Of a stretch of 56,667 nt of DNA, positions 5,343-49,601 are shown one piece after another. The number at the start of each line of letters is the position of its first letter. The stretch's first letter is position 1. This DNA comes from an uncultured Elusimicrobia bacterium (GTDB taxonomy: Bacteria; Elusimicrobiota; Elusimicrobia; UBA1565; UBA9628), in the NCBI GenBank assembly GCA_964653765.1, contig CAZZGQ010000002.1:1-56667 (forward strand), read 5' to 3'. The position numbers and the translations under genes were made by a program. The notes under the pieces were generated by a model. That model was not told the DNA's origin, searched no databases, and worked only from the letters and a program-made list of their open reading frames with translations.

Positions 5343-5345
5343 AGC

Positions 5346-11356: not shown

Positions 11357-11364
11357 GGGGTACT

Positions 11365-26512: not shown

Positions 26513-26520
26513 GTCTTCGC

Positions 26521-27468
26521 ATGAAACATCAAGTTTTGATTTCGCCGTCGTCGTTTGGAGACTGCGGCTCTGATCCGCTTCGGATTCTCGAGGAGGCTGG
26601 CTTTGAGCTCAAGTTCAATCCTTACAGACGAAAACTGGTGCGCGCGGAAGTCGTGGAGCTTGCGCAAGGCTGCCACGGCCTGATCGCCGGCGTCGAGCCA
26701 TTAGACAAGGAAGTTCTGGAGAAGCTACCCGAGCTTCGCTGCATCAGCCGCTGCGGCGCGGGGCTTGATAACGTGGATCTGAATTGTGCGCGGGAGCTTG
26801 GGATTTCCGTTCTTAATACGCCGGAGGGGCCAACGCGAGCCGTGGCGGAGTTAGCCGTTGGACTGACGTTCGCCTTGGCCAGGGCCATCCCACGGCGCGA
26901 CCGCGCCATGCGCGCAGGACGTTGGGATAAAAGCCTCGGCATGTTAATCGAAGGCAAGACAGTGGGCGTGATGGGCCTTGGCCGTATTGGTCGGGCCGTG
27001 GCGCTTTTGTTTCAGTCCCTGGGTTGCCGCATTCTTGGAAACGATGTGCGTCCCGACGTGTCATGGGCGCGAGAACATCACGTTGAGCTCGTTTCTTTTG
27101 AAGAGCTTCTCAAACAAGCCGATATCGTTTGCCTCCATGTTTCCCTTGGCGCAAACAGCGTCGGTTTGATTGGACGACCCGAGCTCGCGCTTTTGAAAGA
27201 AGGCGCGTTATTGGTCAATTTGTCGAGGGGCGAGGCGGTTGACGAGGCCGCGCTGATTGAGGCGCTTGATTCCGGGCGCCTAGCTGGAGCTGCGCTTGAC
27301 GTCTTCGCTCAGGAGCCCTATCGAGGACCTTTGCTACGCTACGACAACGTCGTTTTGTCGCCGCACGTTGGGTCCTATGCGCGGGAAGCTCGACTGCGCA
27401 TGGAAGTGGATGCGGCCCGTAATCTCATCGCAGGCATGGACCAGCGGCTTGAACGCAAGCAAGGGTAA
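26521..27468 (+). CDS. D-2-hydroxyacid dehydrogenase (SerA-like, no ACT domain)
   Basis: ISRCGAGLDNVD, AVAE, GLGRIG, LH, N.SRG..VDE, LDVF..EP, SPH. Confidence 0.9.
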   Translation: MKHQVLISPSSFGDCGSDPLRILEEAGFELKFNPYRRKLVRAEVVELAQGCHGLIAGVEPLDKEVLEKLPELRCISRCGAGLDNVDLNCARELGISVLNTPEGPTRAVAELAVGLTFALARAIPRRDRAMRAGRWDKSLGMLIEGKTVGVMGLGRIGRAVALLFQSLGCRILGNDVRPDVSWAREHHVELVSFEELLKQADIVCLHVSLGANSVGLIGRPELALLKEGALLVNLSRGEAVDEAALIEALDSGRLAGAALDVFAQEPYRGPLLRYDNVVLSPHVGSYAREARLRMEVDAARNLIAGMDQRLERKQG

Positions 27469-29146
27469 GTCCCATGTGCGCGCCAACGCCGCCATTTACG
27501 GCGGAGCGGGCATCATCGTCCAAATCTTTCGTCTTGTCCAAGAAGTCCTTTTGCGCCGACTGCTCACGACGGAGATCATCGGAATCATCGGCTTGGGCGA
27601 TTTGGTCCAAAGTTTCGCCAAGAGCTTGGATCTGGGCGTCGTTGTGGCCGCGGGACGAGATTTGCCGCTGCTTCGCGGAGCGGGACGCCTCGATGAGGAA
27701 GCGATCGCTCGGAGAACGGCTCTATGGGGCTATGTAGCGCAGGCCGTTATATTCGCTATCCCAGTCGTTGTTTACGCTCTCGTTGCCGTCACCGATCCCA
27801 ACATTCGCTGGGCCTTGTGTGCGGCCTCCCTCGTTCAGGTTTTGACCGCCGCCTGCGAGGCGCGGCAGCTGGTCCTTCAGTCCGTCCAGAATTTCGCGAG
27901 CTTAAGCCGCGTCAACCTCTCCTTCGCCTTGATCTATGCCGCTTGCGTTGTGAGCGGAGCGGAATTGTTTGGGCTGCGAGGGGTCCTTGTTGGGGGCGTG
28001 GCGGCCTGGATTGTTCAGACGTTTCTCCTGCGCCATTACATCGCCGGCTTAGTTCTTCAAGAGGGGCGTCTCGATTTCAGAGTATTAAAGAGTCTCATCA
28101 GCTTTGGCCTTCCCTTGAAGCTTTGTGATTATCCGACCGCGCTTGCATTTCTCGTTGACTCGATGATTGTTGGAAAGCTCTTCGGCCTTGAAGGATTGGC
28201 GATTTACTCGACGGCGCGCGCGTTCTTCAACCAAGCCCTCGAGCTTCCCACGCGGTTTGGAAGCGTCGTGCTGATGAGGCTGTATCATGACGACGCAGCC
28301 GAGGGAAGGGCAGTCTCGGCCGCTCAATTGGCTCGATTCCTTAAGGCGCAATATTTTCTCATCCTTCCGGTTTTGGTTTGCGGCTTTGCCGTTGGCCTTA
28401 GGTTCCTCGCCTCTTGTTTCCTGCCTCGTTACATGCCCACGGTTGCGGTGGCTGAAGTTCTTATTCTTGAGGCTTATTTTGTTCCGCAGATCAGCTTGAT
28501 GCGTAATTATTGGATCATCGACAAGAATCTGCGCCTAATCGCCGTCTCGGGAAGCTTGTGGCTCATCTCTCGCGTCGTTTTGCTGTATTGGCTGGCTGTC
28601 GGCCTGAAGCTTGGGCTTATCGGCGCCGCTTGGGCATGTGTCGCCAGCGCCATTGTCTATTACGCATTCCTTTTGATCGGGATCGGGCACCCGCTTTGGG
28701 GCGGTGCTGGCAGCACTCGGCTTGGCTTGTCGGCGATCATTTCGGCCGCCGTAGCGGCGATTGCTGTGCGACAATTGAATACTCCAATGCCAGCCGTTTT
28801 GACGGCAGCGATGCTTGTCGCCGTCCGTCAATTGACTGGAATGATGATGGTGATTTCTCCACTGATCCTTTTCGGCCTCCTTGTTGTCGTCGCCGAAGAC
28901 AATGACGTTGGTTCCGTTACTGTCTGTCTGCCGCGGCTGAGCTTGTGGGCTCTATTCTTTGCCAGGATCAAAAGGAGAAAACCACTGGACGTCTACTTCG
29001 AGGATTACACGCGCTATGCCAAGGCGCTCATGCGCTGGTTTGGCATCCCTGAATCTTGGTTGTTGATTTGCTACCAGCTTGTCGCTGGCCGCTCGGTTCG
29101 CCGATTGCCGCAACGAACCTTGGGGGTTCCATCCCTCTCGGCCTAA
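27449..29146 (+). CDS. wzx: Wzx flippase with an extra ~80-aa C-terminal extension (start TTG 27449 or GTG 27476)
   Basis: RRLL....G, DLG...A.GR.LP, LISFGLPL, D...VG.LFG..GLAIY, LGLIGAAWA; many TMs. Confidence 0.8.
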   Translation: MNASKGKSHVRANAAIYGGAGIIVQIFRLVQEVLLRRLLTTEIIGIIGLGDLVQSFAKSLDLGVVVAAGRDLPLLRGAGRLDEEAIARRTALWGYVAQAVIFAIPVVVYALVAVTDPNIRWALCAASLVQVLTAACEARQLVLQSVQNFASLSRVNLSFALIYAACVVSGAELFGLRGVLVGGVAAWIVQTFLLRHYIAGLVLQEGRLDFRVLKSLISFGLPLKLCDYPTALAFLVDSMIVGKLFGLEGLAIYSTARAFFNQALELPTRFGSVVLMRLYHDDAAEGRAVSAAQLARFLKAQYFLILPVLVCGFAVGLRFLASCFLPRYMPTVAVAEVLILEAYFVPQISLMRNYWIIDKNLRLIAVSGSLWLISRVVLLYWLAVGLKLGLIGAAWACVASAIVYYAFLLIGIGHPLWGGAGSTRLGLSAIISAAVAAIAVRQLNTPMPAVLTAAMLVAVRQLTGMMMVISPLILFGLLVVVAEDNDVGSVTVCLPRLSLWALFFARIKRRKPLDVYFEDYTRYAKALMRWFGIPESWLLICYQLVAGRSVRRLPQRTLGVPSLSA

Positions 29147-30561
29147 TCCTGCCAGTCCTTCCCCTTTTTGGGGCGGTTTACGTTTATTTCTTTGGGCTAA
29201 AAGCAAGTCCCATGCAGGCGCTCCTGGCCGCTCTTCTCTGTTTTTTGTTTTGGCCGAAGGTGGGCTTGCACCAGCCTCCTCTCCTAGAGGGGATGTCGGC
29301 CTATATTTTCATGTGGCCGATCACCACGAGCGCGCTCGCCTTAAGCGTCTGGCGACATGAAGGGAAGAGGCAGGCGTCGGTCGGCAAGGCGCTTGGACGA
29401 TGCCTTTTCATCGCCATAGCGGCCGTCACCGTCTCATTTACGGCCTCCTGGTTGGTCGACAAACAGGGTCTTGCTCCGTCCACGATCGAGCCGCGTTTGC
29501 GCGTTTATAATTTTCTCATCTTGCTGCAAGCAGGATGGTTTTCTTATTTGTTTTTGCGCAGCGTGCGCACCGCGCAGGATGCGCGCCGCGTATTAGAAAT
29601 CTTCGCCTTGGGCGGGGGCGTGATTGTCGCGGAGTCAATTGTATTCGCTTACCTGAAAATACCGTCGCCTGGCGGTTTGGCGTTCGATAAGACGGCAGGG
29701 CGTTTTCAGAGCTTCTTCTATTCCAGTTTCTCCACCGTGAATTTTTTTATGACCTTGGCGTTTTCGAGCATGATGTATATGTCCTTGACACGGCGTCGAG
29801 CGTGGCTGTTATTAACGGCGGCTTGCTTCTTGCCTGTGATGGCGACCTATGAGCGCGGACCGATTTGTGGGCTACTGTGCGTGGCTCTGGTGGCTTTCCT
29901 TGCGACGCGCCGGCGCAAACTGCGATGGTTGCTTTCGATCGCTGTTGTCGCCGCGGCGCTAGCCATCGCCTTTCCGCTATTCTCGGAAGGGTTGGGCCGC
30001 GTGATGGGGGGCTCGGTACGCAAGGATTATTTTTCCTCAGGCCAGGTTTCCGTGCGGCGCGCGATCTGGGCGCGTGGTCTGGATGTTGGAGTCGTAGCGT
30101 TTCCGTGGGGGGTCGGCCCTGGCCTGTTTTCGGAGCAGACGGACGCTGTAGCGATCTGGGTACCGCCGGAGCGGTTCGCCGGACCGGCGGATCGCCTGTT
30201 TTGGGAGACTTATAATAGCCTTGTTCATGGATGGTATCATTCCGATTTGCATAGCCTCTACATGACTTGGATTGTGGAAAATGGGCTTCTTGGGATCCTG
30301 ACTCTTGTCTTTGTGGCGTTTATTTTTGGAAGAAGCCTTCTGGCGCTCTTGCGTACTCCTATTCCCACCGGCGATGAACCGTGGCGAACCTATGCTTTAT
30401 GGGTTTGCTCTTGCGCCGCTTTCGCAGGCCTGGCCGTAGACTATGCTTTTGACGTCAATCCTTTTTTGTTTTTCATGCTGTTTCCCCTTTTGCACATCGG
30501 CAAGGTTTGCCAACGGACACTCAGGTACAATAGCGACGAGCAGGCCATGTCGATTTGTTAG
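29056..30561 (+). CDS. O-antigen polymerase/ligase family (Wzy/WaaL) membrane protein; start uncertain (29056-29212)
   Basis: About 12 TMs, TYERG, large loop with R..IW..GL..P.GVG.G.F, HSDLHSLY..W.VENG..G. Confidence 0.78.
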   Translation: MVVDLLPACRWPLGSPIAATNLGGSIPLGLILPVLPLFGAVYVYFFGLKASPMQALLAALLCFLFWPKVGLHQPPLLEGMSAYIFMWPITTSALALSVWRHEGKRQASVGKALGRCLFIAIAAVTVSFTASWLVDKQGLAPSTIEPRLRVYNFLILLQAGWFSYLFLRSVRTAQDARRVLEIFALGGGVIVAESIVFAYLKIPSPGGLAFDKTAGRFQSFFYSSFSTVNFFMTLAFSSMMYMSLTRRRAWLLLTAACFLPVMATYERGPICGLLCVALVAFLATRRRKLRWLLSIAVVAAALAIAFPLFSEGLGRVMGGSVRKDYFSSGQVSVRRAIWARGLDVGVVAFPWGVGPGLFSEQTDAVAIWVPPERFAGPADRLFWETYNSLVHGWYHSDLHSLYMTWIVENGLLGILTLVFVAFIFGRSLLALLRTPIPTGDEPWRTYALWVCSCAAFAGLAVDYAFDVNPFLFFMLFPLLHIGKVCQRTLRYNSDEQAMSIC

Positions 30562-38216: not shown

Positions 38217-39209
38217 ATGAAGGAAGCTGAAGTTCGCCCGCTCGACCTTTACAACCGTTACCTCGACTTAGCAAAACGGGACGCCAAGACCCTGATTGCC
38301 GAGCGGTCTGATTTTGTCGAAGTCGCTTGCTCTGCCTGCGCTGCGCGGCCGCACGTCGAGGCCTTCGAAAAACTGGGTTTTCGCTGGGTGGTCTGCCGGA
38401 CATGCGAGTCGCTCTATATATCGCCTCGTCCGACGCCGGAACAATTGCTCAACTTCTACAAGAACGGAGAGTCGGTGAAGTTTTGGAGCTCCGACTTTTT
38501 TCGGCAGACGGCCGAGGCCCGGCGAGAAAAGATGTTTCAGCCTCGGGCAAGGCTCGTGGCCGAGCTCGTGAATCGAGAGGCGTGGACCGGCGATAAGACG
38601 TTCGTCGATGTCGGCTCGGGCTATGGGATTTTCTTGGAGGAGATCCGCAAGCTTGGTGTTTTTAACGACATCGTTGGAGTCGAGCCCGGTCCGACGATGG
38701 CCCAGATCTGCCGAGAGAGAGGATTCCGAATCGTCCCAAAGATGGCCGAGGATGTCGTCGACGGCGATTGCCGCGCTGACGTCGCCACGGCTTTTGAGGT
38801 GCTCGAGCACGTCTTTGACCCGCTCAGGTTCTTGGCGGGAGTCCGGCGCCTGCTTAAGCCCGGAGGGCTGTTTCTTTATACGACCCTGACGGCCAGCGGA
38901 TTCGACATTCAAGTGTTGTGGGAAAGGTCCAACAGCGCTCACCCGCCTCATCATCTCAATCTGATTTCCGTCAAGGGGATGGAGCTGTTGCTCGAGCGAG
39001 CGGGATTCAGGCTCGTTGAGCTGGCCACTCCTGGCGAGCTTGACCTCGACATCGTGGCCAACATGGTTCGGGAGAATCCCGCGTTGCCGTTGCCTCGATT
39101 TGTCGCGGAAATGCTCAAGTCTTGCGACGACAAAGGGCGCAGGGAGTTCCAGTCCTTTCTGCGTAATAATCGCCTGAGCTCGCATATTCGCGTCGTCGCC
39201 CGCGCATGA
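38217..39209 (+). CDS. SAM-dependent methyltransferase with N-terminal Zn ribbon
   Basis: CSAC...CRTC..LY.SPRP, VDVGSG.G.FL, FEVLEH..DP, L.PGG. Confidence 0.86.
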   Translation: MKEAEVRPLDLYNRYLDLAKRDAKTLIAERSDFVEVACSACAARPHVEAFEKLGFRWVVCRTCESLYISPRPTPEQLLNFYKNGESVKFWSSDFFRQTAEARREKMFQPRARLVAELVNREAWTGDKTFVDVGSGYGIFLEEIRKLGVFNDIVGVEPGPTMAQICRERGFRIVPKMAEDVVDGDCRADVATAFEVLEHVFDPLRFLAGVRRLLKPGGLFLYTTLTASGFDIQVLWERSNSAHPPHHLNLISVKGMELLLERAGFRLVELATPGELDLDIVANMVRENPALPLPRFVAEMLKSCDDKGRREFQSFLRNNRLSSHIRVVARA

Positions 39210-40159
39210 CGCAAGCGAGCTTGACGCGCGTTCAGAAGCTGACCGTCGATGGGCAATCCGCTTTACGGCTAAACAACGGTCTGGTCCAAGTCGACGTCCT
39301 TCCCGAGCTTGGCGGCAAAATCTGGAATCTGATCCATGTCCCGTCGCAGACGCAGTGGATTTGGCACAATCCAAAAACTGCGCTCCAGAAGGTCGCGTCG
39401 GGTGCCAGCTACGATGACCATTGGGCGGGCGGCTGGGAAGAGCTTTTCCCAAACGACGCGGCCGGTATGTTCCAGGGCCGGAACCTTCCCGACCACGGCG
39501 AGTGGTGGAGTCGCCCCTGGAATGCCGAGGCTCTGGAGTCAGCCAGCGGACAATCGGCCGTGCGACTTTCGCTCGAGGGGAGCGTGTTGAGGGCGCGTTG
39601 CGAGAAACGCATCGAGGTTGCCGCCAACGCCGCGGAAGTCACGATCCGCTATCGAATCGAGAACCTGGAAGATAAGCCGATCCATTTTCTTTTCAAGCAG
39701 CATCTGGCCGTCGCAGTTACTCCGGAGCACCGTCTTGAAGTCCCAGGTGGTTTGGTCCGTCCGGTTGACCTAGACTTCAGTACGAGGCTTGGCGCGGAGG
39801 GGCCGTTTCCGTGGCCGCACGGTCTGGATCGTAAGGCTCAGCTGGTGGATCTCAGCGTCTTGCCCAAGCCTCAGGAGCGGCATCGCGAATTTGTCTATAT
39901 CGAACGCCTCACGGAGGGCGCCTGCGGCGTTCGCGACACGGTGACAGGACGCTCGCTGCGGTTAAAATTCTCCCAGAACACGTTTCCTTTTACCTGGCTT
40001 TTCTGCACGTATGGAGGCTGGCGGGACCTTTACACTGCCGTGCTCGAGCCATGCACCAATATGCCAAAGGATCTCAACGAGGCGTTCCGGCTCGGGAACT
40101 GCGCTTCGCTTGAGCCCGGCGAGTCATTAACGACCTCCGTCAGCGCCATTCTTTCATGA
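39206..40159 (+). CDS. Galactose-mutarotase-like (aldose 1-epimerase superfamily) protein
   Basis: P.LGGKI, GGWEELFP, DHGE, H, EP.T. Confidence 0.7.
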   Translation: MTQASLTRVQKLTVDGQSALRLNNGLVQVDVLPELGGKIWNLIHVPSQTQWIWHNPKTALQKVASGASYDDHWAGGWEELFPNDAAGMFQGRNLPDHGEWWSRPWNAEALESASGQSAVRLSLEGSVLRARCEKRIEVAANAAEVTIRYRIENLEDKPIHFLFKQHLAVAVTPEHRLEVPGGLVRPVDLDFSTRLGAEGPFPWPHGLDRKAQLVDLSVLPKPQERHREFVYIERLTEGACGVRDTVTGRSLRLKFSQNTFPFTWLFCTYGGWRDLYTAVLEPCTNMPKDLNEAFRLGNCASLEPGESLTTSVSAILS

Positions 40160-40908
40160 AGATCGTCGCCATCATCCCTGCGCGACTCAGCGCTTCCCGT
40201 TTCCCGCGCAAGCCCTTGGCGTCGATCCTGGGCCGCCCCATGATCGAGCACGTTTATCGGCGCACTCGGCTGTGCCGGTCTTTGGATGATGTCTATATCG
40301 CCACTTGCGATGAGGAGATTCGGCGGGTCGGCGAGAGCCTGGACGCGAAGGTGTCGATGACCTCGCCTCGACATGAACGCGCCAGCGACCGAGTGGCGGA
40401 GGCGGCGCGCTCTATTGAAGCGGACGTGATCGTCATGATTCAGGGCGATGAGCCGATGATCATCCCCGAGATGATCGATGGTGCCGTTGAACCGCTGCGC
40501 CGTGACCCGTCCGTGCTCTGCGCCAATCTTGCCGCGCCGATCAAGTCGGAGCGGGAATTCGCCGATCCAAACACCATCAAGGTGGTCATGGCCCAAAATG
40601 GCGACGCCCTTTATTTTTCCCGCGAGCCTATTCCGACGCGCCAGAAGTTCCCTTTTGGCGATCTTTCAGTCTACAAACAAGTTTGCGTCATTCCTTTCCG
40701 CCGGGAATTCTTGCTGCGCTATGCAGATTTGCCGCCCACGCCGCTTGAGCGAGCGGAATCGATCGATATGCTTCGCGCGCTCGAGCATGGTTATCCCATT
40801 CGGTTGGTCCGAACAGACGTGATGACTCATGCCGTCGATACCCCGGAAGATCAGCGGATCGTCGAGAAGATGATGCGCGCCGATCCGCTTGTTACCCAAT
40901 ATGCGTAA
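40156..40908 (+). CDS. kdsB: 3-deoxy-manno-octulosonate cytidylyltransferase family, paralogue 1
   Basis: IPARLSASRFPRKPL..I.G.PMI.HV, ASDRVAE, QGDEP, KVV, YFSR.PIP, LE..E.IDMLR.LE.G, VDTPED. Confidence 0.9.
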   Translation: MKIVAIIPARLSASRFPRKPLASILGRPMIEHVYRRTRLCRSLDDVYIATCDEEIRRVGESLDAKVSMTSPRHERASDRVAEAARSIEADVIVMIQGDEPMIIPEMIDGAVEPLRRDPSVLCANLAAPIKSEREFADPNTIKVVMAQNGDALYFSREPIPTRQKFPFGDLSVYKQVCVIPFRREFLLRYADLPPTPLERAESIDMLRALEHGYPIRLVRTDVMTHAVDTPEDQRIVEKMMRADPLVTQYA

Positions 40909-41872
40909 TCCAGCTTCTCCGTCAAAATTTCGCGTTTTGGTGTCGGCGCCTTACGCGATGCCGGTGATCGATCGTTACCGCAGCGTCCTTGAGCAAGCCG
41001 GCTGCGAGGTCGTCGTGGCCAAGGTCCGGGAACGTTTAAGCGAGGGCGAGCTTCTTGGCCTTGTGGTCGACGTTGATGGGATCATTTGCGGCGATGATCA
41101 GATCACGCTCCGCGTTCTTGAGGCCGCTCCACGTCTTAAGGTCATTTCAAAGTGGGGCACTGGCATCGACTCGATCGACGTGGAGGCCGCGCGCGCGCGA
41201 GGCGTTGCGGTTCGAAACACGCCTAATGCCTTCAGCGAGCCCGTCGCGGACACGGCGCTGGGGTATATGCTCTTGTTCGCGCGCCGCCTTGACACGATGA
41301 GTCAAGACATCCGAGCTGGCCGTTGGTCAAAGCCCGCGCTGTTCGCGTTGCGGGAAAAGACTCTTGGAATCATTGGCCTCGGCAATTGCGGGAAAGCCGT
41401 GGCGGGGCGGGCCGCGGCCTTTGGTATGCAGATCGTTGCCCATGACGTCGTCTCGCCGTCAAAGGAATTTCTGGCGCGATGCCCGGTTCGCTTGACAACG
41501 CTTGGGGAAGTGCTGGGAGCGGATTTCGTCACGATTCACGCCAATTTAAATCCCACGTCCTACCACCTGATCAACGATGCGGCGCTCGCGAAGATGAAAT
41601 CGACGGCTTACTTGATCAATACAGCGCGAGGACCGATTGTTGAAGAGGCCGCTCTTGTTCGAGCCCTCTCGGCCAAGCGCATCGCCGGAGCTGCCTTGGA
41701 TGTTTTTGAAAAGGAGCCTCTTCCGGAGGATAGCCCGCTTCGCCGATGCGACAATGTCTACTTCGCGCCGCATAACGCCAACAGCAGCCCTGAGGCGGCC
41801 GAGCGAGTCCATGAAAACACCATCGCCCAGCTGCTGAAGGACCTCCAAGCCGATCCGGTGGTAAGGGCCTAA
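40901..41872 (+). CDS. D-2-hydroxyacid dehydrogenase (SerA-like), paralogue 2
   Basis: SKWGTGIDSID, VAD, GLGNCG, INTARGPIV.E, LDVFEKEPLP, PHNA. Confidence 0.9.
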   Translation: MRNPASPSKFRVLVSAPYAMPVIDRYRSVLEQAGCEVVVAKVRERLSEGELLGLVVDVDGIICGDDQITLRVLEAAPRLKVISKWGTGIDSIDVEAARARGVAVRNTPNAFSEPVADTALGYMLLFARRLDTMSQDIRAGRWSKPALFALREKTLGIIGLGNCGKAVAGRAAAFGMQIVAHDVVSPSKEFLARCPVRLTTLGEVLGADFVTIHANLNPTSYHLINDAALAKMKSTAYLINTARGPIVEEAALVRALSAKRIAGAALDVFEKEPLPEDSPLRRCDNVYFAPHNANSSPEAAERVHENTIAQLLKDLQADPVVRA

Positions 41873-41875
41873 GCC

Positions 41876-43822
41876 ATGCCTGAGACATCCGTCATCATCC
41901 GCGCGTTTAACGAGGCCAAACATCTTCCCAGGCTTTTTGACGCGTTGAAGCGTCAAACATACCGCGATTTCGAGACCGTCGTCGTTGATTCCGGCTCCTA
42001 TGACGCGACGCGCGACATCGCTCGTCAGAACGCGGACCGGCTGATCGAGATCCAGCAGCATGATTTCACGTTTGGGCATTCGCTTAACGTCGGCATTGAA
42101 AATAGCGGCGGCCGTTTTCTTGCCATCATCTCTGCGCATGCGGCGCCAACGAATTCCGAGTGGCTGGGAAACCTGATCGAACCCCTTCGCTCCGATCGCA
42201 CGGCTATGGTCTACGGGCGCCAGATCGGCGACCACCAGACTAAGCTTGGGGAGTTCGTCGATTTCTTGCGAACCTTTGGGACTGAAAAGAAGGTTCTAGT
42301 GGCGCCCGATTTCTTCGCCAACAACGCGAATTCGGTGCTGCGCCGGGATTTGTGGCAGCGCCGCCGTTTTGACGAGAATCTGCCAGGCCTCGAGGACATC
42401 GAGTGGGTGAAGTTTTTCATGGAGCAGGGCTATCAAGTTGTTTATGAGCCGAAGTCCTGCGTCTTTCATGTTCACGAGGAAACGTGGTCGCAAGTGCGCC
42501 GTCGCTATTATCGAGAAGGACAAGCCGCGAAGTGGATTGGAATCGCCGGACGGCGCGATCTGCCCAAGCTCTTCTTTCGAGAGATGCGTTCCTTGGTTGG
42601 CGATTTTTTCTGGACCATAAAACATGGGCGGTCGAGCCGGCCGATGGATATCGTTCGTTGGCGTTACGAGAAGCTGAGAGGTTCTAGCTCCGGCATATTG
42701 GACGGCGCGGCGATGCAAAACCCGGCGACCCGAAGGCAACTGTTGTTTGATCGCTCCTACAAGGCTGTCGTCGTGAGAGCTCCAGGCAAGGCCAGCCTCG
42801 AGGATGTTGAGATGCCGGCGCTCAAGCCTGGAGAGGTGCTTGTGAAGGTCGCCTACCAGGGAATTTGCGCTACGGACCGCGAAGTTTTCGAGGGAACCTT
42901 AGGGTACTATAAAGACGGTCTGGCCAAATATCCGATCGTGCCTGGGCATGAGTTTTCGGGCACCGTCGCGGCTTGTGGCGCCCGCATCGAGGATCTTCCC
43001 CATGGCAGCCCGGTCGTAGTTGAGTGCATTCAGGGATGCGGCAATTGCCCGCAATGCCGACAAGGGCGGAGTATCGGATGCGTTCAGAGACGCGAGGTGG
43101 GCGTCATCGGGAAAGACGGCGGTTACGCGGAGTTCGTGATAACGCCAAGAAAGTTCGTTCATGTTCTTCCGGCAGGGATGGATCTGCGCAAGGCCTGTCT
43201 GTGCGAGCCCACCGCTGTCGTCTTGAAGGGGCTGCGCCGATTGGCTGGAGCGCGGCTAGGAGCTCGTTTGGGCGAGTGCGCTGTCATCGGCGCTGGAACC
43301 ATTGGGCATTTGGCCGCCAGGATCTTGGAACTGCGTGGAAACCGAGTCACCATCTTCGACCGGGATCCTCGGCGCCTTGAGCCGTTTAACGGCAGCTCCA
43401 TTGGAACAAGCCGGGACGTGGATGATTTGACCCGATTCCAAACGGTCATAGAAGCGACCGGCGATCAAGAGGCCTTGGAGGACGTGCTGCGCAAATCCGC
43501 CGCCGGCACCACGATTCTATTGCTGGGGCTGCCCTATGCGCGCCGGGAATTCAGCTTTGAAAATATCGTCGGCTACGATCTGGCGGTCGTGGGCTCCGTC
43601 GGGAGCGGGTCCGAGGACTTCCGAGAGGCGCTGAAGGTCCTTCCTGAGTTAGACGTGCCCGCTTTTTACGGCGCGGTCTTTCCATTGGCGGACTATGAGC
43701 TCGCATGGCAGGCGGCCCGCGAGAGAAAATCGATCAAGGTGATGCTCGAGGTGAGTCGGCCTGAAGCCGCGCAGGCCGACTCACGCGAAGTGGCGACGGC
43801 TTCTGCTAATGGCCCGAAGTGA
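41876..43822 (+). CDS. Fusion: GT2 glycosyltransferase + Zn-dependent medium-chain dehydrogenase (MDR)
   Basis: N-half SVIIRAFNE, VVDSGS.D, ISAH, EDIEW; C-half from about aa 295 GICATD, GHE, CxxCxxC...C, GAGTIG; one uninterrupted frame. Confidence 0.85.
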   Translation: MPETSVIIRAFNEAKHLPRLFDALKRQTYRDFETVVVDSGSYDATRDIARQNADRLIEIQQHDFTFGHSLNVGIENSGGRFLAIISAHAAPTNSEWLGNLIEPLRSDRTAMVYGRQIGDHQTKLGEFVDFLRTFGTEKKVLVAPDFFANNANSVLRRDLWQRRRFDENLPGLEDIEWVKFFMEQGYQVVYEPKSCVFHVHEETWSQVRRRYYREGQAAKWIGIAGRRDLPKLFFREMRSLVGDFFWTIKHGRSSRPMDIVRWRYEKLRGSSSGILDGAAMQNPATRRQLLFDRSYKAVVVRAPGKASLEDVEMPALKPGEVLVKVAYQGICATDREVFEGTLGYYKDGLAKYPIVPGHEFSGTVAACGARIEDLPHGSPVVVECIQGCGNCPQCRQGRSIGCVQRREVGVIGKDGGYAEFVITPRKFVHVLPAGMDLRKACLCEPTAVVLKGLRRLAGARLGARLGECAVIGAGTIGHLAARILELRGNRVTIFDRDPRRLEPFNGSSIGTSRDVDDLTRFQTVIEATGDQEALEDVLRKSAAGTTILLLGLPYARREFSFENIVGYDLAVVGSVGSGSEDFREALKVLPELDVPAFYGAVFPLADYELAWQAARERKSIKVMLEVSRPEAAQADSREVATASANGPK

Positions 43823-45641
43823 CGACTCGCCGATTATCGTTGCTTTGCCCAGAGAGGCCGCCCGCCTAGCCAAGGGAATTGGCCGAGACCGAGAGTGGTG
43901 TTATCTCGGCTCCTCCATTCGTCGGCGAGAGCGCGTTTCTGCCGTTCTCAATAGCGAGCGCAGGGTCTCCGTTGCTCGAGAAATTGATCTGATCGCGGGC
44001 AGATGCAAACAACCGTTCCTGGACTGGCTTGAGAGCGTTGGACGTCTCCAACGCGATCGCCTGGGTTGGTGGACCTCGACGTTAGCCTCACGCAGCTCGC
44101 TGCAGACCGATCTTTTTCTTCAATTCTGTTACGCTGAGCTCATTCGGAGTTGGATTGCAGAGCGCCGTGGGCCGGTGGTTGTTGTTGTCGAGGATCCCTG
44201 GCTGATTTTATTCCTCAAGCGGCGCTTTCCAGACGAATCCGGGCTGGTCTTCTTTGGCGGATTGCCGATGGGCCTTTGCACTAATACGCTCTACTGGCTG
44301 GCGCGAGCGCCTTTGTCCGTCGCCCATACCCTGGCTTATGCCCTCGCCGCTTTCATGCTGGGTGGCCTTATTCGGCGTCGTGAGCCTCGGGAGGGTGGCG
44401 CGTCCGTCTTGATTCATACTTGGATCGATGGCCGATCCGTGTCCCAAAGAGGCGTCTTTCAGGACCCTTACACGGGAAGGCTGGAGTCATTTTTCACGTC
44501 ACGCGGGCAAACGGTGTTGCGTTTGACGCATTGGCACATCCCGCCCACTTTAATCCCGCGCCTGAAATCATTCTGGCAAGACTTCCTCCTGGCGCCTCAC
44601 TATTTGCGTCTAAGCGATATCCTTCACGCCGTGACGTCTCGTTTTACCCTCTCTAATCTGGATTCCATCCCGCGGATGCTTGGCTGGGATATGCGCCCTC
44701 TGCTACGTCGAGAAATGCTTCATGAGTGGGGCCATCCGGCCTATTCGCGATACCGGCTCACTTATCTATGCCTGCGCAGAATGGCCAGCCAATGGGCCAG
44801 TCAGGTCAAGTGCATCGTTTATCCCTTTGAAAACCTGCCTTGGGAAAAAATGCTTTGCCTGGCCTGGCGAGAAGCGTCGCCAACGGTTCGCCTTGTTGGT
44901 TATCAGCATTCGAGCGTGCCGCCGCTGCTGCTGAACTATTTTCTCGGTCAGCGTGAAAGCGAAATCATGCCATTGCCGGACCAGGTGATCGCAAACAGCA
45001 GTTATAATGAGGCACTTCTCAGGAGCGGCGGTTATCCGTCGGTGCTTAACGGGGGGGCCCTGCGCTACGAGCACTTGTTTTTGGACCTTTCGGCGGCCGA
45101 AGGGAGGAAGATTTCATCCGACGCGGATCGGTTCGTGCTTGTGGTTTTCCCGACGTGCGTGCCTTATGCCGAAGCCCTGTTTTTTGACGTCATGGAGACG
45201 TTTAAAGATCCGCTTCATGTCCCGGGGGCTCAGCGGCCCGTGCCGATCGTATTGAAATTTCATCCAGTGCTCCCGTTCAAAATAGTCGCACCCGCAAACG
45301 CGCGGCTGCCGCGCTGGGTTTCCGTCTCGGAGCAATCTCTCGACCAATTGCTTCCCAAGGCGGGAGTTCTACTTTATGTTCCGCACACGACGAGCTGGTG
45401 GGAGGCTTTTATCGCTGGCGTTCCGGTATTAAAATATCAGACCGATATGCTTGACGTGGATTCGTCTTCCGCCTTGGACGGAGACGCCCCTCGGATTTGC
45501 AGGCGAGAAACGATTCGCGATGAGATCGCAAGCGCGCTTTCGCGCGGGAAGACGGGAAAGTGCCCGGAGCATCAGCTGGAGAAGTTTTTTGGACGAGTTA
45601 ACGAAAACCTTTGGCTTCAAATGACGGGGGAACTTCGATGA
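43809..45641 (+). CDS. Putative glycan transferase, GT-B-like C-terminus (resembles LIC13510-type surface carbohydrate proteins)
   Basis: D.Y.G.L, YPFEN.PWEK....AWR, GYQHS, G..RY, LKFHP, T....EA..AGVP. Confidence 0.58.
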   Translation: MARSDDSPIIVALPREAARLAKGIGRDREWCYLGSSIRRRERVSAVLNSERRVSVAREIDLIAGRCKQPFLDWLESVGRLQRDRLGWWTSTLASRSSLQTDLFLQFCYAELIRSWIAERRGPVVVVVEDPWLILFLKRRFPDESGLVFFGGLPMGLCTNTLYWLARAPLSVAHTLAYALAAFMLGGLIRRREPREGGASVLIHTWIDGRSVSQRGVFQDPYTGRLESFFTSRGQTVLRLTHWHIPPTLIPRLKSFWQDFLLAPHYLRLSDILHAVTSRFTLSNLDSIPRMLGWDMRPLLRREMLHEWGHPAYSRYRLTYLCLRRMASQWASQVKCIVYPFENLPWEKMLCLAWREASPTVRLVGYQHSSVPPLLLNYFLGQRESEIMPLPDQVIANSSYNEALLRSGGYPSVLNGGALRYEHLFLDLSAAEGRKISSDADRFVLVVFPTCVPYAEALFFDVMETFKDPLHVPGAQRPVPIVLKFHPVLPFKIVAPANARLPRWVSVSEQSLDQLLPKAGVLLYVPHTTSWWEAFIAGVPVLKYQTDMLDVDSSSALDGDAPRICRRETIRDEIASALSRGKTGKCPEHQLEKFFGRVNENLWLQMTGELR

Positions 45642-46741
45642 AAAAGATTGTCCATGTCGCGGTGATCGGCTGCGGCCGCATTTCTGGCCATCATTGTCGC
45701 TCCATTGTCGAGGCGCCGGGCGTAAAGCTCGCGGCGGTATGCGATCTGGACGAGAAAAAGGCGCAGGCTTACGCCAAGGAGTTCTCGGTTCCGTGTTTTA
45801 CCAACTATCGCGAGATGTTGCGGAGAATTCCAGAGGTCGACGTGGTCGCTGTCATCACGCCCTCCGGCATGCATTATGAGCACTCATTGGAAATCCTCGA
45901 TACCTATCGTAAACACGTGATCGTTGAAAAACCTACTTTTATGCGCCCGAGCCAGGCGCGGCGTGTTTTTGCGCTTGCCCGCCGCCTTGGGCTTCAAGTA
46001 TTTCCCGTTTTTCAAAATCGCCACAACCTTGCCGTTCAACGGGTGCTTCGCGGTCTTCAGTCGGGCGAATTGGGAAAACCCAGAATCATTTCCGTGCGAG
46101 TGCGTTGGTGCCGCCCCCAACGTTACTATGAAATGGCGCCGTGGCGGGGGACGTTTGCCCAAGATGGTGGAGCGCTGACCAATCAGGGAATCCACCACAT
46201 TGACTTACTGCGGCTTTTCGGGGGAGAAGTTCGCCGGGTCAACTGCCTTATGCGAACGTTGGGTGTGGATATCGAGGTCGAAGACACCGCTCTTGCGACC
46301 GTCCAGTTTAAGAATGACGTGGTCGGCGCAGTCGAGGTCACGACAGCGGCAAGGCCAAGCGACTTCGAGGCCTCATTATCGCTAGTCTGCGAGAATGGGT
46401 TGGCCCAGATTGGAGGAATCGCCGTCAACGAGCTTCAGATCTTCACGCCCGACCCGTCGGCTTGCGTGGCGCATTCCGAGGATTTTAGCGGCTGCATTTA
46501 CGGCAACGGGCATAAGCAGATCTATCGGGAAATCAGCGCCTTCTTCAACGAGGGCGTTCCGTTTTCCGTAGCGGAAAGCGATAGCACGAGCACTCTTCAG
46601 CTGCTCAACGCCTTCTATCGCTCCGATGAGGCGCGCGAATGGGTGGAGGTCGATTCCGAGGGAGAGTCTACTCGTTTGGGGCGCGAGGATGAGTCATTGG
46701 CCAGCTTATACCGCAGCCAGCCCGAAGTGGTTCGAGCATGA
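45638..46741 (+). CDS. Gfo/Idh/MocA oxidoreductase (WlbA/WbpB-like)
   Basis: ATGA overlap; IGCGRIS..H, TPSGMH, EKP, FQNR.N, WRGT...DGG...NQ.IH.ID, VED. Confidence 0.9.
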   Translation: MKKIVHVAVIGCGRISGHHCRSIVEAPGVKLAAVCDLDEKKAQAYAKEFSVPCFTNYREMLRRIPEVDVVAVITPSGMHYEHSLEILDTYRKHVIVEKPTFMRPSQARRVFALARRLGLQVFPVFQNRHNLAVQRVLRGLQSGELGKPRIISVRVRWCRPQRYYEMAPWRGTFAQDGGALTNQGIHHIDLLRLFGGEVRRVNCLMRTLGVDIEVEDTALATVQFKNDVVGAVEVTTAARPSDFEASLSLVCENGLAQIGGIAVNELQIFTPDPSACVAHSEDFSGCIYGNGHKQIYREISAFFNEGVPFSVAESDSTSTLQLLNAFYRSDEAREWVEVDSEGESTRLGREDESLASLYRSQPEVVRA

Positions 46742-47514
46742 CGCGGGAGAAAATCGTCGGAATTGTGCCGGCGCGGATGGCGGCGTCTCGTTTTCCTGGA
46801 AAGCCGCTACATCCTATTCTCGGCCGGCCAATGATTGAACATGTATTTAGACGCGCTGAGCGCTTTAAAGGGTGGGACGGACTGCATCTGGCGACGTGCG
46901 ACGGCGCGATCGCCGATTTTGGTCACTCCAAGGGTTGGTCGGTGATAATGACAAGCGATAAGCACACTCGCTGCTTGGACCGGATTGCCGAGGCTGCCGG
47001 CAAGTGCGGCTTAAAACTCGCGCCAACGGACATTGTCGTTTGCGTTCAAGGCGACGAGCCAATGCTGCATCCAGACATGATCGCGGCAGCGATCCAGCCC
47101 CTAAAAAAGGATCGCCAAGCGCATGGAACCATCTTGGCGATGGAGATCGCGCAGCGCGAGCAGTTTGAGAATCCGGACACAGTCAAGATCGTCTACAACA
47201 AGGAAGGCGAGGTGCTTTACACGTCGCGCGCGCCCGTACCGTATTGCAAAGGCACGTTCTCCGTCGATCATGGGGCGAGGAGAATCTATGGCATTTTCGC
47301 GTTTCGCTGGAACGCGTTAAAGACTTTTACGAGGATGAAAGAAGGTCGCCTTGAACGGCTTGAATCGTGCGACAGCAATCGCCTGCTTGACGGAAAAGTC
47401 AGACAGAGAATCGCGCCGTATCCGTTCCGTCCTTCGTTTTCCGTTGATAGTCCGGCCGATATCCACCTCGTGGAGGAACACATGCGGAAGGATCCGCTAT
47501 GGGGGCGGTATTAG
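46738..47514 (+). CDS. kdsB: 3-deoxy-manno-octulosonate cytidylyltransferase family, paralogue 2
   Basis: VPARMAASRFPGKPL, DRIAEA, QGDEP, Y.SRAP.P, LE..ES.D.NR, SVDSP.D. Confidence 0.85.
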   Translation: MTREKIVGIVPARMAASRFPGKPLHPILGRPMIEHVFRRAERFKGWDGLHLATCDGAIADFGHSKGWSVIMTSDKHTRCLDRIAEAAGKCGLKLAPTDIVVCVQGDEPMLHPDMIAAAIQPLKKDRQAHGTILAMEIAQREQFENPDTVKIVYNKEGEVLYTSRAPVPYCKGTFSVDHGARRIYGIFAFRWNALKTFTRMKEGRLERLESCDSNRLLDGKVRQRIAPYPFRPSFSVDSPADIHLVEEHMRKDPLWGRY

Positions 47515-47515
47515 C

Positions 47516-48253
47516 GTGAGTACGGTTCGGAAAATCATTTCTCGAATCAGAAGTTGGAAGCAGGAGTTGACGGCGCCGCAGCAATTCAGGATGCAGTATT
47601 ACTCGAATCTGAAAACGCTGAGGACGGATTCGAAGCGCCCAGTTCTTAAGGAATTCCATTGCGATGCCACGGATCACCCAGTTTCCTACGTGGATTTCGA
47701 GTGCTCCTTCGCGGCTCGCCACATCGGCAAGAAAAATCCGACAACGATCCTGGACATTGGATCATATCGGCATTTCATTTTGGGATTGCAGGCAAAATAT
47801 AAGGTGACGACCCTCGATGTGCGGCCCAGGCCGAAAGCGACCGATAACGAGGTCGTCATCACCGGGGATGCCAAGCGATTGGATCTTCCGGACAACTCCA
47901 TTGACGCCGTTGTATCGCTGTGCGCCATAGAGCATTTTGGCTTGGGACGATACGGGGACGAATTTGATTTGAGCGGCGATAAGAAGGCCTGCCAAGAAAT
48001 GATCCGAGTCTTAAATCCAGGCGGAGTTTTGATCCTCACGACGACGATCACGCAAGGAAGCGCCCTGACCGTTTTTAACGCGCACCGCATCTACGATTAC
48101 GCGGCGATCCAGGCGTTGCTCGCTCCGCTTGAACGCGTCGAGGAGGCGTTCTTTAGTCATAATAAAGGCGGATGGTGCTCGCGTGAGGAGGTTTCGAGCG
48201 TGCCTGGGATTTGGGACGTCTACTGCGGCTGTTGGAAAAAGCCGGCAAATTAA
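47516..48253 (+). CDS. DUF268-like SAM-dependent methyltransferase-fold protein
   Basis: LDIGS, LD.R, SLCAIEHFGLGRYGD, HR.Y. Confidence 0.72.
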   Translation: MSTVRKIISRIRSWKQELTAPQQFRMQYYSNLKTLRTDSKRPVLKEFHCDATDHPVSYVDFECSFAARHIGKKNPTTILDIGSYRHFILGLQAKYKVTTLDVRPRPKATDNEVVITGDAKRLDLPDNSIDAVVSLCAIEHFGLGRYGDEFDLSGDKKACQEMIRVLNPGGVLILTTTITQGSALTVFNAHRIYDYAAIQALLAPLERVEEAFFSHNKGGWCSREEVSSVPGIWDVYCGCWKKPAN

Positions 48254-48263
48254 GAGGCAGAGA

Positions 48264-49601
48264 GTGAGGCTTCAGTCGACGTGGGTCGAGAAAAGCGCCA
48301 AAGCAGCGGCGCTTTGGATCATCGTCCTGATTTGGGCCTTGCATTTAGTCTATCCGATGCAGCGGCTTCAAGACGCACGATGGCTGATTTTCGGCAATAG
48401 TGTTCCGATTTATTTCTTCTTCATTGTCCCGCCCGTTTTGATCGCGGGGATTTTAACCGTGCTCTTCAAGCGCCAGTGGTCTAAATGGGAGCTGCTGTGG
48501 CTTGCTCTGCCCTTGATCTGCCTGCCTGGGGTTTTTGTCAGCACGGATCGCCTGTGGTCGCTGCGGCAATGGTCGAGCTTTATGATCCGCGGCCCGATTC
48601 CCGGCGGCGTCCTTTTTTTTGCGGCGCGCGCCCGCTCGCGCAGTTTCATCGTCGCTTGGATATACCCAGCGATCCTCGCGGCGGCTCTGATTGGTCTTGT
48701 GGAAGTGCTCTTTCATTTCAATCCCATTTGGAAAGACTTCAGCAACGTGATCCAAGAGACGGGCCAGATCACCAATCCTTTTTACCGCCCAGGTTATCAA
48801 ATGGCGCCGCCGACGCCGCCAAGGGGTACGCAGGGCAATAGAATTCCTTATGCGGCGACGCTGGTTGGTTTTTTCCCGCTGGGAATTTGGGTGCTCAAGC
48901 ATAAGAAATGGCCCCCGACGACCGCCTACGCGGCGGTTTGCTTGCTTTCATCCATTCTGATCTTGGCGGGATCAAGATCGGCTTGGATGGGGTTAGGTGT
49001 CAGTCTGGTATTGATGGCGTCCACGGGCCTTATTAAAAGCAGATTCGAATGGTTGAGCATTGCCGGTAGCGTTCTCTTCCTCTTGGGCGCCGCGTGCGCA
49101 TTGCCTGGTCCCCGCCATGCGCTGTGGAGCCGACTCCATTCGTTCCATTTCGCGGAAAACGGAATTCGTACCCGCCTTTACGGGTGGGAGACCGCCCGGA
49201 TGTTGAAGGATTGTTGGGCCTGGGGGGTTGGTTACGGCCAATATCCAAGCGCCGCCGATCGTTATTATCGCGGTCCCCGATGGCTGCCTTATTTCCACGG
49301 ACAAACTTGGATTGGAACGCCCGATAGTCAATATCTTCGATGGGCGATCGAGAATGGCATTTTGAGTTTGACCTTACTCGCCGCTTTTTTTGCAGGCCTT
49401 ATCCGCGAGAGTTGGGCCAGGATTCAATCTATTGCAGACGCCGAGGCGGTCGACTTTTACAAAGCACTGCTGGCCGGATGGGCGGCGGTCGCCACCACTT
49501 TTATGTTCTTTGATGGGTATTATTGGGGAGCCTGCAATATGACGTTCTGGGCCTTGCTGGGGTTATTCGCCACAAGCCTCGACGGCGCTGAGCTATGGTA
49601 G
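48264..49601 (+). CDS. O-antigen ligase (WaaL)-family membrane protein
   Basis: About 12 TMs, GTQGN, LAGSRSAW, R...W......GVG.GQY, SQYL.W..ENG. Confidence 0.78.
   Translation: MRLQSTWVEKSAKAAALWIIVLIWALHLVYPMQRLQDARWLIFGNSVPIYFFFIVPPVLIAGILTVLFKRQWSKWELLWLALPLICLPGVFVSTDRLWSLRQWSSFMIRGPIPGGVLFFAARARSRSFIVAWIYPAILAAALIGLVEVLFHFNPIWKDFSNVIQETGQITNPFYRPGYQMAPPTPPRGTQGNRIPYAATLVGFFPLGIWVLKHKKWPPTTAYAAVCLLSSILILAGSRSAWMGLGVSLVLMASTGLIKSRFEWLSIAGSVLFLLGAACALPGPRHALWSRLHSFHFAENGIRTRLYGWETARMLKDCWAWGVGYGQYPSAADRYYRGPRWLPYFHGQTWIGTPDSQYLRWAIENGILSLTLLAAFFAGLIRESWARIQSIADAEAVDFYKALLAGWAAVATTFMFFDGYYWGACNMTFWALLGLFATSLDGAELW

Follow-up and report, generated by a model that had tools for sequence, protein, structure and literature searches.

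Two KdsB-like cytidylyltransferases of an Elusimicrobia surface-glycan island belong to separate gene cassettes and probably activate acidic sugars other than Kdo

A 56,667-nt stretch of DNA from an uncultured Elusimicrobia bacterium (the window; contig C2 of a 4.04-Mb, 88% complete metagenome-assembled genome, MAG) contains a block of nine plus-strand genes (38217-48253) that includes two homologues of KdsB, the synthetase of cytidine monophosphate-3-deoxy-D-manno-octulosonate (CMP-Kdo). We found that this block consists of two adjacent mobile gene cassettes and is not one module, and that the first of them (cassette A, with KdsB1) does not need KdsA. Judging from their sequences, KdsB1 and the KdsB2 of the second cassette (cassette B) are probably not ordinary CMP-Kdo synthetases, each probably activating an acidic sugar other than Kdo. 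Our preferred explanation, to which we give a probability of roughly 0.4, is that each cassette builds and CMP-activates a non-Kdo acid of its own, the 2-keto acid arising by oxidation of an aldonic acid with no synthase involved. An earlier note, made from the window sequence alone, had described nine coupled genes without KdsA, KdsC or KdsD; all nine open reading frames (ORFs) were recovered with the families it gave (Table 2), most junctions having a stop/start overlap of 4-8 nt that points to translational coupling, and neither these three enzymes nor any aldolase or synthase family was found among the proteins of the block.

The two KdsB homologues are 40% identical to each other. Measured against the TIGR00466 equivalog cut-off of 155.2 bits, KdsB1 fell barely above (159.1 as a protein, 158.8 in the genome scan) and KdsB2 below (142.6 and 142.3), the housekeeping KdsB of the same genome reaching 203.3. 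In a maximum-likelihood tree, canonical KdsB including KpsU (support 100/100), KdsB2 (98/93) and KdsB1 (93/91) formed three clades, with no resolved order of branching among them. We compared the active-site pockets of 120 KdsB1-family and 46 KdsB2-family sequences in the numbering of KpsU (1GQ9). The residues serving cytidine triphosphate (CTP) and Mg (R10, R15, K19, Q96, D98, K141, R155, E198, R204 and D225) are essentially invariant in both families and are also kept in the housekeeping KdsB; other pocket positions are replaced (Table 1). H172Q, G174C, Y176I and E201D occur in 120/120 members of the KdsB1 family, and Q202M and S75R in 119/120, while the 46 KdsB2 orthologues carry S75R, F153T, H172I/V, Y176F/L, E201D, Q202S and L203N, an arginine at position 75 being gained in both families. 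In E. coli KdsB, His181, Tyr185 and Gln98 contact Kdo and line its site (PMC12199768). KpsU-numbered H172 and Y176 align with His181 and Tyr185, and both are replaced in both families, as are the conserved E-Q of the EQLR motif and the S-G-T motif. Q172/C174/I176/D201-M202 and I172/F176/D201-S202-N203 can serve as sequence markers of the KdsB1 and KdsB2 families, respectively.

Table 1. Pocket residues that distinguish the three groups (KpsU 1GQ9 numbering)
Position	Housekeeping KdsB/KpsU	KdsB1 family	KdsB2 family
75-77	S-G-T	R-A-S	R-A/C-L
172	H	Q	I/V
174	G	C	G
176	Y	I	F/L
201-203	E-Q-L	D-M-L	D-S-N

The earlier note had taken the nine genes for a single KdsB-centred module. KdsB2 orthologues (54-70% identity) were found in 55 metagenome loci, 19 of them well flanked, and their neighbours were counted by tblastn, on which all neighbour counts given here rest. 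At these 19 loci we detected homologues of two Gfo/Idh/MocA oxidoreductases of the window (Gfo17874 at 19, Gfo45611 at 18), of the 2-hydroxyacid dehydrogenase Hacid26521 (16), of a HisC-like aminotransferase (14), of a short-chain dehydrogenase/reductase (SDR; 10) and of an AroB-like protein (10). Neither KdsB1 nor the fusion protein GT2-MDR of cassette A, a family 2 glycosyltransferase (GT2) domain joined to a medium-chain dehydrogenase/reductase (MDR), occurred near KdsB2 orthologues at any of the 19. A single nine-gene pathway is thus ruled out, as KdsB2 and Gfo45611 orthologues travel always with the AroB-like set and in 0/19 loci with GT2-MDR or KdsB1. Because their orthologues elsewhere neighbour orthologues of the window genes at 17874-20735 and 25379-27468, KdsB2 and Gfo45611 are the detached end of the AroB-like cassette. 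In the window, cassette A and further glycan genes, ~18 kb in all, come between its two parts, and the genes missing from the block lie 18-28 kb upstream. The Gfo/Idh/MocA protein that the earlier note had cast as an aldose dehydrogenase therefore goes with the KdsB2 set and does not serve KdsB1. KdsB2 is the sole nucleotidyltransferase of cassette B. Related cassette-B loci add a GmhA-like SIS_2 isomerase (19 loci), and most of those without the AroB-like and SDR genes have a phosphatase of the inositol monophosphatase (IMPase) or haloacid dehalogenase (HAD) family. The DUF268 methyltransferase that closes the block (47516-48253) had no orthologue in the 19 well-flanked loci and is specific to this island.

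Cassette A was sampled by scanning one genome per GTDB species, which returned 80 GT2-MDR loci; more than 1300 GT2-MDR homologues exist at 53-74% identity. The 80 loci come from at least 12 phyla, including Chloroflexota and an archaeon, and only two are records of named, non-MAG strains (Magnetospirillum group). Among the 62 loci with at least 3 kb of upstream sequence, a KdsB1 orthologue lay within 4 kb of GT2-MDR at 42 and a dehydrogenase resembling phosphoglycerate dehydrogenase (PGDH) within the same distance at 40, with the order KdsB1-dehydrogenase-GT2-MDR (the gene triad) kept on one strand at 34. Two other families, DUF4432 (21 loci) and the PF04199 'cyclase' hydrolase (16 loci), occur just upstream of the triad and never together. 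Orthologues of the Methyltransf_23 gene (41-53% identity) stand beside the triad at 11 of the 62 loci and at 14/80 overall, FkbM-type methyltransferases taking this place at other loci; a large GT-B-like orphan usually follows in cassette-A loci, as does one or the other methyltransferase.

Several loci depart from this pattern. Four of the Magnetospirillum group (L068, L071, L072 and L079) are arranged cyclase-dehydrogenase-GT2MDR-KdsB, and their KdsB shares only 33-36% identity with KdsB1; the one examined, that of L068, keeps H172 and has I176 and D201-Y202. L068 and L079 come from the named strain records, those of Paramagnetospirillum marisnigri SP-1 and Magnetospirillum sp. SS-4, respectively; as cultured carriers of this diverged variant, both strains may be open to direct chemical analysis. 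On four soil metagenome contigs (L164, L166, L174 and L180), a KdsB1 orthologue and the dehydrogenase occur without GT2-MDR and are followed by a GT-B-like 450-aa orphan that matches no Pfam family and carries an R-P-H-P motif, this trio sitting outside glycan islands, where its neighbours are a radical-SAM gene, an FGGY kinase or MacB/FtsX permeases. Four Desulfobacterales-labelled loci (L021, L023, L035 and L040, in G004, G005, G014 and G017) show the variant GT-B(weak WaaA-like)-methyltransferase-cyclase-KdsB1-dehydrogenase-GT2MDR. No KdsA, canonical KdsB or WaaA N-domain was found in these four genomes, and LpxC only in G005, a 7.0-Mb single-record MAG; such carriers may have a Kdo-less envelope that uses the cassette-A acid, perhaps in place of Kdo.

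KdsA is absent from 13 of the 51 genomes that carry cassette A: all six Chloroflexota, one labelled Thermoplasmatales, four bins of Desulfobacterales type, and one bin each of Elusimicrobiota and Burkholderiales. The best matches to a KdsA search in these genomes scored 124-137 bits and are most likely 3-deoxy-D-arabino-heptulosonate 7-phosphate (DAHP) synthases, and the gene triad is intact in most of the 13. In nine of ten KdsA-less genomes checked, the KdsB-family gene of the cassette is the only one; the exception is the Elusimicrobiota bin (G007), which has a second, separate one (178 bits). No KdsB-family match at E <= 1e-40 was found in 399 other Chloroflexota species genomes, and the same check of KdsA-independence for cassette B found no KdsB2 orthologue in 401 Chloroflexota genomes. 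For cassette A, the occurrence in Kdo-less lineages contradicts the earlier suggestion of two CMP-transferases between which host Kdo would be remodelled, and nothing links the two KdsBs in series.

In the Elusimicrobia genome itself the housekeeping Kdo pathway is complete outside the window: the kdsAB pair, whose presence elsewhere the earlier note had left to be looked for, lies on contig C9 (KdsA, 367 bits; KdsB, 203.3 bits), with KdsD/KpsF on C120 (292 bits) and KdsC on C178 (125 bits). The window also encodes a NeuB-family synthase (7560-8435) whose operon ends with a third cytidylyltransferase (11365-12096), and a second NeuB lies on contig C6 together with a cytidylyltransferase-like frame. 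Since each of the three condensing synthases of the genome (KdsA and the two NeuB) has a cytidylyltransferase on its own contig, KdsB1 and KdsB2 are left without a synthase. The claim that these KdsBs lack one was borne out: neither the block, nor the genome count, nor more than 130 related loci showed a synthase dedicated to either.

What accompanies both KdsB families, and is their most constant partner, is a PGDH-like D-2-hydroxyacid dehydrogenase; the earlier note had proposed this enzyme as the source of the 2-keto group. This family interconverts aldonates and 2-keto-aldonates. Hacid40889 (cassette A) and Hacid26521 (cassette B) are full-length members whose closest solved relatives are 3-phosphoglycerate dehydrogenases (for Hacid40889, 1WWK at 217 bits), and the Arg/Glu/His triad of Hacid40889 aligns with those of human PHGDH and Pyrococcus horikoshii PGDH. 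Both fall below every equivalog cut-off, including that of SerA (TIGR01327, cut-off 454; 232.5 bits for Hacid40889 and 227.6 for Hacid26521). At a further locus (L216:1250-3028), a dehydrogenase 43% identical to Hacid26521 is fused to a NeuA-like CTP_transf_3 domain in a protein of 592 aa.

The GT2-MDR fusion combines an unusual transferase domain with a complete zinc enzyme. In 22 sequences of the GT2 domain, D38, S39, G40, S41, D43 and E173-D174 are invariant, matching the D-x-G-S-x-D and ED motifs; equally invariant is S86-A87-H88, at the position where GT2 enzymes usually carry DXD. A sequence search with this domain alone gave only generic GT2 matches (e.g., K4CP and GalT1), and among the top 50 matches of a fold search with the whole protein (predicted TM score, pTM, 0.57) all were to MDR and none to the GT2 domain. 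In the MDR domain, the catalytic Cys/His/Glu (C331 near-invariant, H358 and E359 invariant) and the four cysteines of the structural zinc (C388, C391, C394 and C402, invariant) are present, and Foldseek aligned it with sorbitol, galactitol-1-phosphate and threonine dehydrogenases at template-modelling (TM) scores of 0.80-0.88. Identification of the MDR domain as an archaeal-type glucose dehydrogenase was unsupported, its PDB and Foldseek neighbours being polyol, threonine and alcohol dehydrogenases. In DUF4432, H97, H166 and E281 are invariant and D244 near-invariant, a set that resembles what we take to be the catalytic residues of galactose mutarotase; searches of the PDB with DUF4432, by sequence and by profile, gave no usable match, and no alignment to a solved mutarotase was obtained.

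At 19 loci, mostly of Gemmatimonadota and Acidobacteriota, GT2-MDR occurs with an ATP-grasp gene and without KdsB1, and DUF4432 is also present in 17/25 ATP-grasp loci (those of the two phyla with GT2-MDR and no KdsB, some including DUF4432, are L042, L044, L058, L059, L066, L070, L082, L083, L086-L088 and L097). ATP-grasp enzymes activate carboxylates. The pairing of GT2-MDR with ATP-grasp at these 19 loci implies that GT2-MDR acts before CMP activation and that its product is usable as a carboxylate; it also disfavours the GT2 domain as the CMP-acid transferase, and suggests that there the same acid is amide- or ester-ligated instead of CMP-activated. On the simplest reading of these gene sets, GT2-MDR and DUF4432 would deliver a carboxylic (aldonic) acid, which would then be either oxidised at C2 and CMP-activated, or ligated.

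For the transfer step, the product of o43809 is a candidate CMP-acid transferase, of cassette A or cassette B. Its AlphaFold2 model (mean pLDDT confidence 91) retrieved GT-B enzymes in Foldseek, and no transmembrane segment was found in it. Within its family, K483 and H485 are near-invariant and P486 invariant, forming a K-x-H-P motif after a strand of the C-terminal domain. Homologues occur in three further loci, each within ~5 kb of a CTP_transf_3 gene. o43809 is only distantly related to TIGR04326 (LIC13510, a surface carbohydrate biosynthesis protein), which it matches over the C-terminal half only; PF27859 (LIC12162) is found in one homologue, and hhalign gave only a weak C-terminal match to the orphan o22689. 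An hhalign match between the o43809 alignment and LIC12162 (E 2e-44) was discounted, as the alignment itself contained that sequence.

We propose the following routes. In cassette A, GT2-MDR, aided by the mutarotase-like DUF4432 or elsewhere by the PF04199 hydrolase, would supply a free sugar and oxidise it to an aldonic acid; the PGDH-like dehydrogenase would oxidise the C2 hydroxyl to give the 2-keto acid, and after ring closure KdsB1 would join it to CMP. The candidate GT-B transferase, with its K-x-H-P motif, would then install the acid, and the methyltransferase would probably O-methylate the acid sugar. Cassette B would start from a sugar phosphate, probably sedoheptulose-7-phosphate by way of the SIS isomerase, followed either by dephosphorylation or by the action of the AroB-like protein, as a phospholyase, with the SDR. 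One Gfo enzyme would oxidise C1 and Hacid26521 C2, a keto-amination would fall to the second Gfo and the HisC-like protein, and KdsB2 would transfer CMP; by the same logic of two oxidations, the product would most likely be a seven-carbon 2-ulosonic acid bearing an amino group, or else a carbocyclic analogue. The proposed routes would use every conserved enzyme and need no carbon-carbon bond formation. All substrates, the order of the steps, the role of GT2 and the formation of the 2-keto group by oxidation are our inferences. A bolder form of the proposal, which we put forward tentatively, is that many phyla and some archaea make CMP-3-hydroxy-2-ulosonic acids through two dehydrogenations (at C1 by MDR or Gfo, at C2 by the PGDH-like enzyme), with a hex-2-ulosonate from cassette A, an aminated hept-2-ulosonate from cassette B and a carbocyclic product from the AroB-like branch. 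The synthase-independent route envisaged in the earlier note is partly supported, by the missing synthase, the pairing with the dehydrogenase and the Kdo-less carriers; its assignment of genes to the steps is not.

Several observations weigh against this proposal. The nearest structures to the MDR domain are polyol, threonine and alcohol dehydrogenases and not aldose 1-dehydrogenases; the hydrolytic role proposed for the GT2 domain, freeing the sugar from its nucleotide, is conjectural; the SIS isomerase and the phosphatase of related cassette-B loci were not found in the window; the MAG from which the window comes is incomplete (88%); and our literature search for these families, or for hex- or hept-2-ulosonic acids in glycans, returned nothing relevant. 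Further points favour an alternative that we consider possible though doubtful, in which the substrates of both KdsBs would be tailored 3-deoxy-2-ulosonic acids, their skeleton supplied by an aldol-type enzyme encoded elsewhere (housekeeping KdsA, a NeuB-family synthase of the island or an HpcH pyruvate aldolase), and the dehydrogenases, aminotransferase and methyltransferases would serve only as decoration, as KdnB/KdnA do for 8-amino-8-deoxy-Kdo (Kdo8N). The genome under study (G000) has KdsA, KdsC, KdsD and two NeuB. NeuB also occurs in 11/13 of the KdsA-less carriers, often in the same island and within 10-30 kb of the cassette. At L216, next to the fusion gene, an HpcH_HpaI pyruvate aldolase lies directly 5' of a KdsB1-type gene (both within 4142-5746; the latter with 52% identity and identical pocket residues) and without GT2-MDR, so that KdsB1-type enzymes may take an aldolase-made 3-deoxy acid, and an HpcH gene also occurs in L106. 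With the SIS isomerase, the phosphatase and a KdsB-like enzyme, cassette B has three of the four Kdo functions; it resembles KpsF/KdsC/KpsU with only KdsA missing, and could draw on the housekeeping KdsA.

Against condensation stands, first, that cassette A is intact in genomes without KdsA or canonical KdsB. Of the 11 KdsA-less genomes with NeuB, nine (all except G006 and G014) show a NeuA-type cytidylyltransferase-like match no more than ~6 kb from each NeuB, which again leaves KdsB1 unpaired; NeuB lies within 10 kb of cassette A at only 7/62 loci. HpcH-like genes are found at none of the 80 cassette-A loci and at one of the 55 cassette-B loci, HpcH_HpaI aldolases at one of 214 loci other than L216, and none in the window. 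The residues that contact Kdo are replaced in both KdsB families. Finally, mere tailoring would not account for a 2-hydroxyacid dehydrogenase being found more constantly than any other partner, even to the point of fusion with a cytidylyltransferase.

We regard as unlikely a second alternative, in which the product of the PGDH-like enzyme is D-glycerate, phosphoglycerate or another such C3/C4 2-hydroxy acid, which the KdsB-like enzyme converts to its CMP or cytidine diphosphate (CDP) form, the glycan substituent being glyceric acid or phosphoglycerate. The solved relatives of the dehydrogenase would fit such a substrate, Arg75 could bind an extra anionic group, the KdsB1-dehydrogenase pair stands as a minimal unit outside glycan islands, and the ATP-grasp variants suggest a ligatable carboxylate. 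However, a mutarotase-like protein with conserved His/His/Asp/Glu directly upstream of KdsB1 implies a ring-forming reducing sugar; cassette B, with its isomerase, phosphatase, two Gfo enzymes and aminotransferase, builds a sugar and has no other activating enzyme; and the KdsB geometry that lets a hydroxyl adjacent to a carboxylate attack is conserved in full. That KdsB1 and KdsB2 are simply KpsU-like duplicates raising the CMP-Kdo supply for O-antigen or capsule, among unrelated redox genes, is very improbable: both pass NCBIfam KdsB models (PRK13368 for KdsB1, PRK05450.1-5 for KdsB2), E. coli KpsU gives the top match to KdsB1 in the PDB and a housekeeping Kdo pathway is present, yet both fall outside the canonical clade that holds KpsU, their pocket residues are invariantly replaced, their order with redox partners is kept across phyla and cassette A occurs in Kdo-less genomes.

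The block lies within a surface-glycan island at 12-52 kb of the window, where the guanine-plus-cytosine content is 53-59% as compared with ~70% in the flanks and nearly all genes are on the plus strand (Table 2). The island includes two Wzy_C genes, Wzx-like genes, a WecA-type family 4 glycosyltransferase (GT4) and a WbpM-type dehydratase. Its two Wzy_C polymerase/ligase genes (29056-30561 and 48129-49601) and two Wzx-like genes (5346-6845, minus strand, and 27296-29146) may mean that one island encodes two repeat units, or that it was put together from transferred pieces. The 620-aa orphan at 22689-24551 has a segment, residues 9-72 (22713-22901), that recurs with 58% identity in the Wzx-like ORF 27296-29146, at residues 543-606 (28922-29110). 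The NeuB of the window is short (291 aa), has no Pfam SAF-domain match and scores 248 bits against 399 for TIGR03569; in its operon (7560-12096) it is accompanied by a class-IV aminotransferase, an AP_endonuc_2 TIM-barrel protein, an SDR and the NeuA-like cytidylyltransferase, and this gene set also adjoins cassette A in the Chloroflexota loci L015 and L064.

Table 2. Genes of the nine-gene block and of the detached part of cassette B (window coordinates)
Feature	Position	Strand	Family evidence
S-adenosylmethionine (SAM) methyltransferase, cassette A	38217-39209	+	Methyltransf_23, E 4.6e-24
DUF4432 (PF14486), galactose-mutarotase-like, cassette A	39206-40159	+	37.9 bits vs gathering 32.5; directly 5' of KdsB1
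KdsB1, cassette A	40156-40908	+	CTP_transf_3 E 1.5e-48; PRK13368 298.7 bits (cut-off 255); TIGR00466 159.1 (cut-off 155.2)
PGDH-like D-2-hydroxyacid dehydrogenase (Hacid40889), cassette A	40889/40901-41872	+	PF00389/PF02826; E 9.7e-56 (2-Hacid_dh_C) and 5.5e-21
GT2::Zn-MDR fusion, 648 aa, cassette A	41876-43822	+	Glycos_transf_2 (residues 5-117, 70.1 bits) + ADH_N/ADH_zinc_N (317-625)
o43809, GT-B fold candidate transferase, 610 aa	43809-45641	+	no Pfam family; weak TIGR04326 match 68.7 bits (cut-off 250)
Gfo/Idh/MocA oxidoreductase (Gfo45611), cassette B	45611/45638-46741	+	GFO_IDH_MocA (Pfam)
KdsB2, cassette B	46738-47514	+	CTP_transf_3 E 8.5e-39; TIGR00466 142.6 (below cut-off); PRK05450.1-5 212 (cut-off 193)
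DUF268/Methyltransf_11 methyltransferase	47351/47516-48253	+	Pfam; likely GTG start at 47516
Gfo/Idh/MocA (Gfo17874), detached cassette-B part	17874-18938	+	
SDR, detached cassette-B part	18815-19654	+	
AroB-like TIGR04425, detached cassette-B part	19635-20735	+	462 bits vs cut-off 400
HisC-like aminotransferase, detached cassette-B part	25379-26512	+	
PGDH-like 2-hydroxyacid dehydrogenase (Hacid26521), detached cassette-B part	26521-27468	+	

To our knowledge, every glycan ulosonic acid described so far (Kdo, deaminoneuraminic acid or Kdn, and the sialic, pseudaminic and legionaminic acids) is built by condensation dependent on phosphoenolpyruvate (PEP), and for this reason annotation pipelines name any KdsB-like gene 'CMP-Kdo synthetase'. 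The two KdsB-derived families described here, of hundreds to thousands of members in at least 12 phyla, are thus probably misnamed, and one of them works in Kdo-less organisms. If the proposal is true, an oxidative route would be a third, aldolase-free way to glycan ulosonic acids beside those of KdsA and NeuB, and would add a new class of activated sugar acid and its biosynthetic logic to bacterial and archaeal surface glycans; even if aldolase-fed, the products would be undescribed sugars.

Compared with the CMP-Kdo pathway (KdsD, KdsA, KdsC and KdsB; KpsF/KpsU), the cassettes share the KdsB fold and the CTP/Mg residues, CMP presumably being joined to the hydroxyl next to the carboxylate, and like KpsU their KdsB genes sit in a glycan locus without KdsA. 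They differ in forming separate clades, in replacing the equivalents of His181 and Tyr185 and the E-Q pair, in the occurrence of cassette A where KdsA and KdsB are absent, and in a constant partner, the 2-hydroxyacid dehydrogenase, that plays no part in making Kdo. As full-length proteins, Hacid40889 and Hacid26521 belong to the same family as SerA/PdxB, which oxidise a 2-hydroxy acid, and the 2-ketogluconate(-6-phosphate) reductases (GhrB/TkrA, KguD), from which they differ in sitting in glycan cassettes next to a cytidylyltransferase. By neighbourhood, KdsB2 and Gfo45611 are true members of the AroB-like (TIGR04425) cassette with transferases of the LIC12162/LIC13510 type, a set of TIGRFAMs hypothetical equivalogs for which we found no experimental paper in the literature.

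In sialyltransferases, the histidine of the HP motif protonates the CMP phosphate (PMC9587256). o43809 differs from the HP-motif GT-B sialyltransferases and beta-Kdo transferases (GT52, GT80, GT99 and GT107) in having no sequence-family match and in its top structural neighbours, which are GT1 enzymes, uridine diphosphate N-acetylglucosamine (UDP-GlcNAc) 2-epimerases and MurG (TM 0.3-0.6); it resembles them in its two-Rossmann GT-B architecture and in its K-x-H-P after a strand of the C-terminal domain, which recalls their HP motif. In the nonulosonic pathways (NeuB/NeuA, Pse and Leg), a hydrolysing enzyme (NeuC, PseG or LegG) releases the sugar from the nucleotide ahead of acid formation and CMP activation. 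Although the cassettes lack a NeuB-type condensation and their cytidylyltransferases are KdsB-type and not NeuA-type, the logic proposed here would be the same, leading from a nucleotide sugar through the free sugar, the acid and the CMP-acid to a GT-B transferase.

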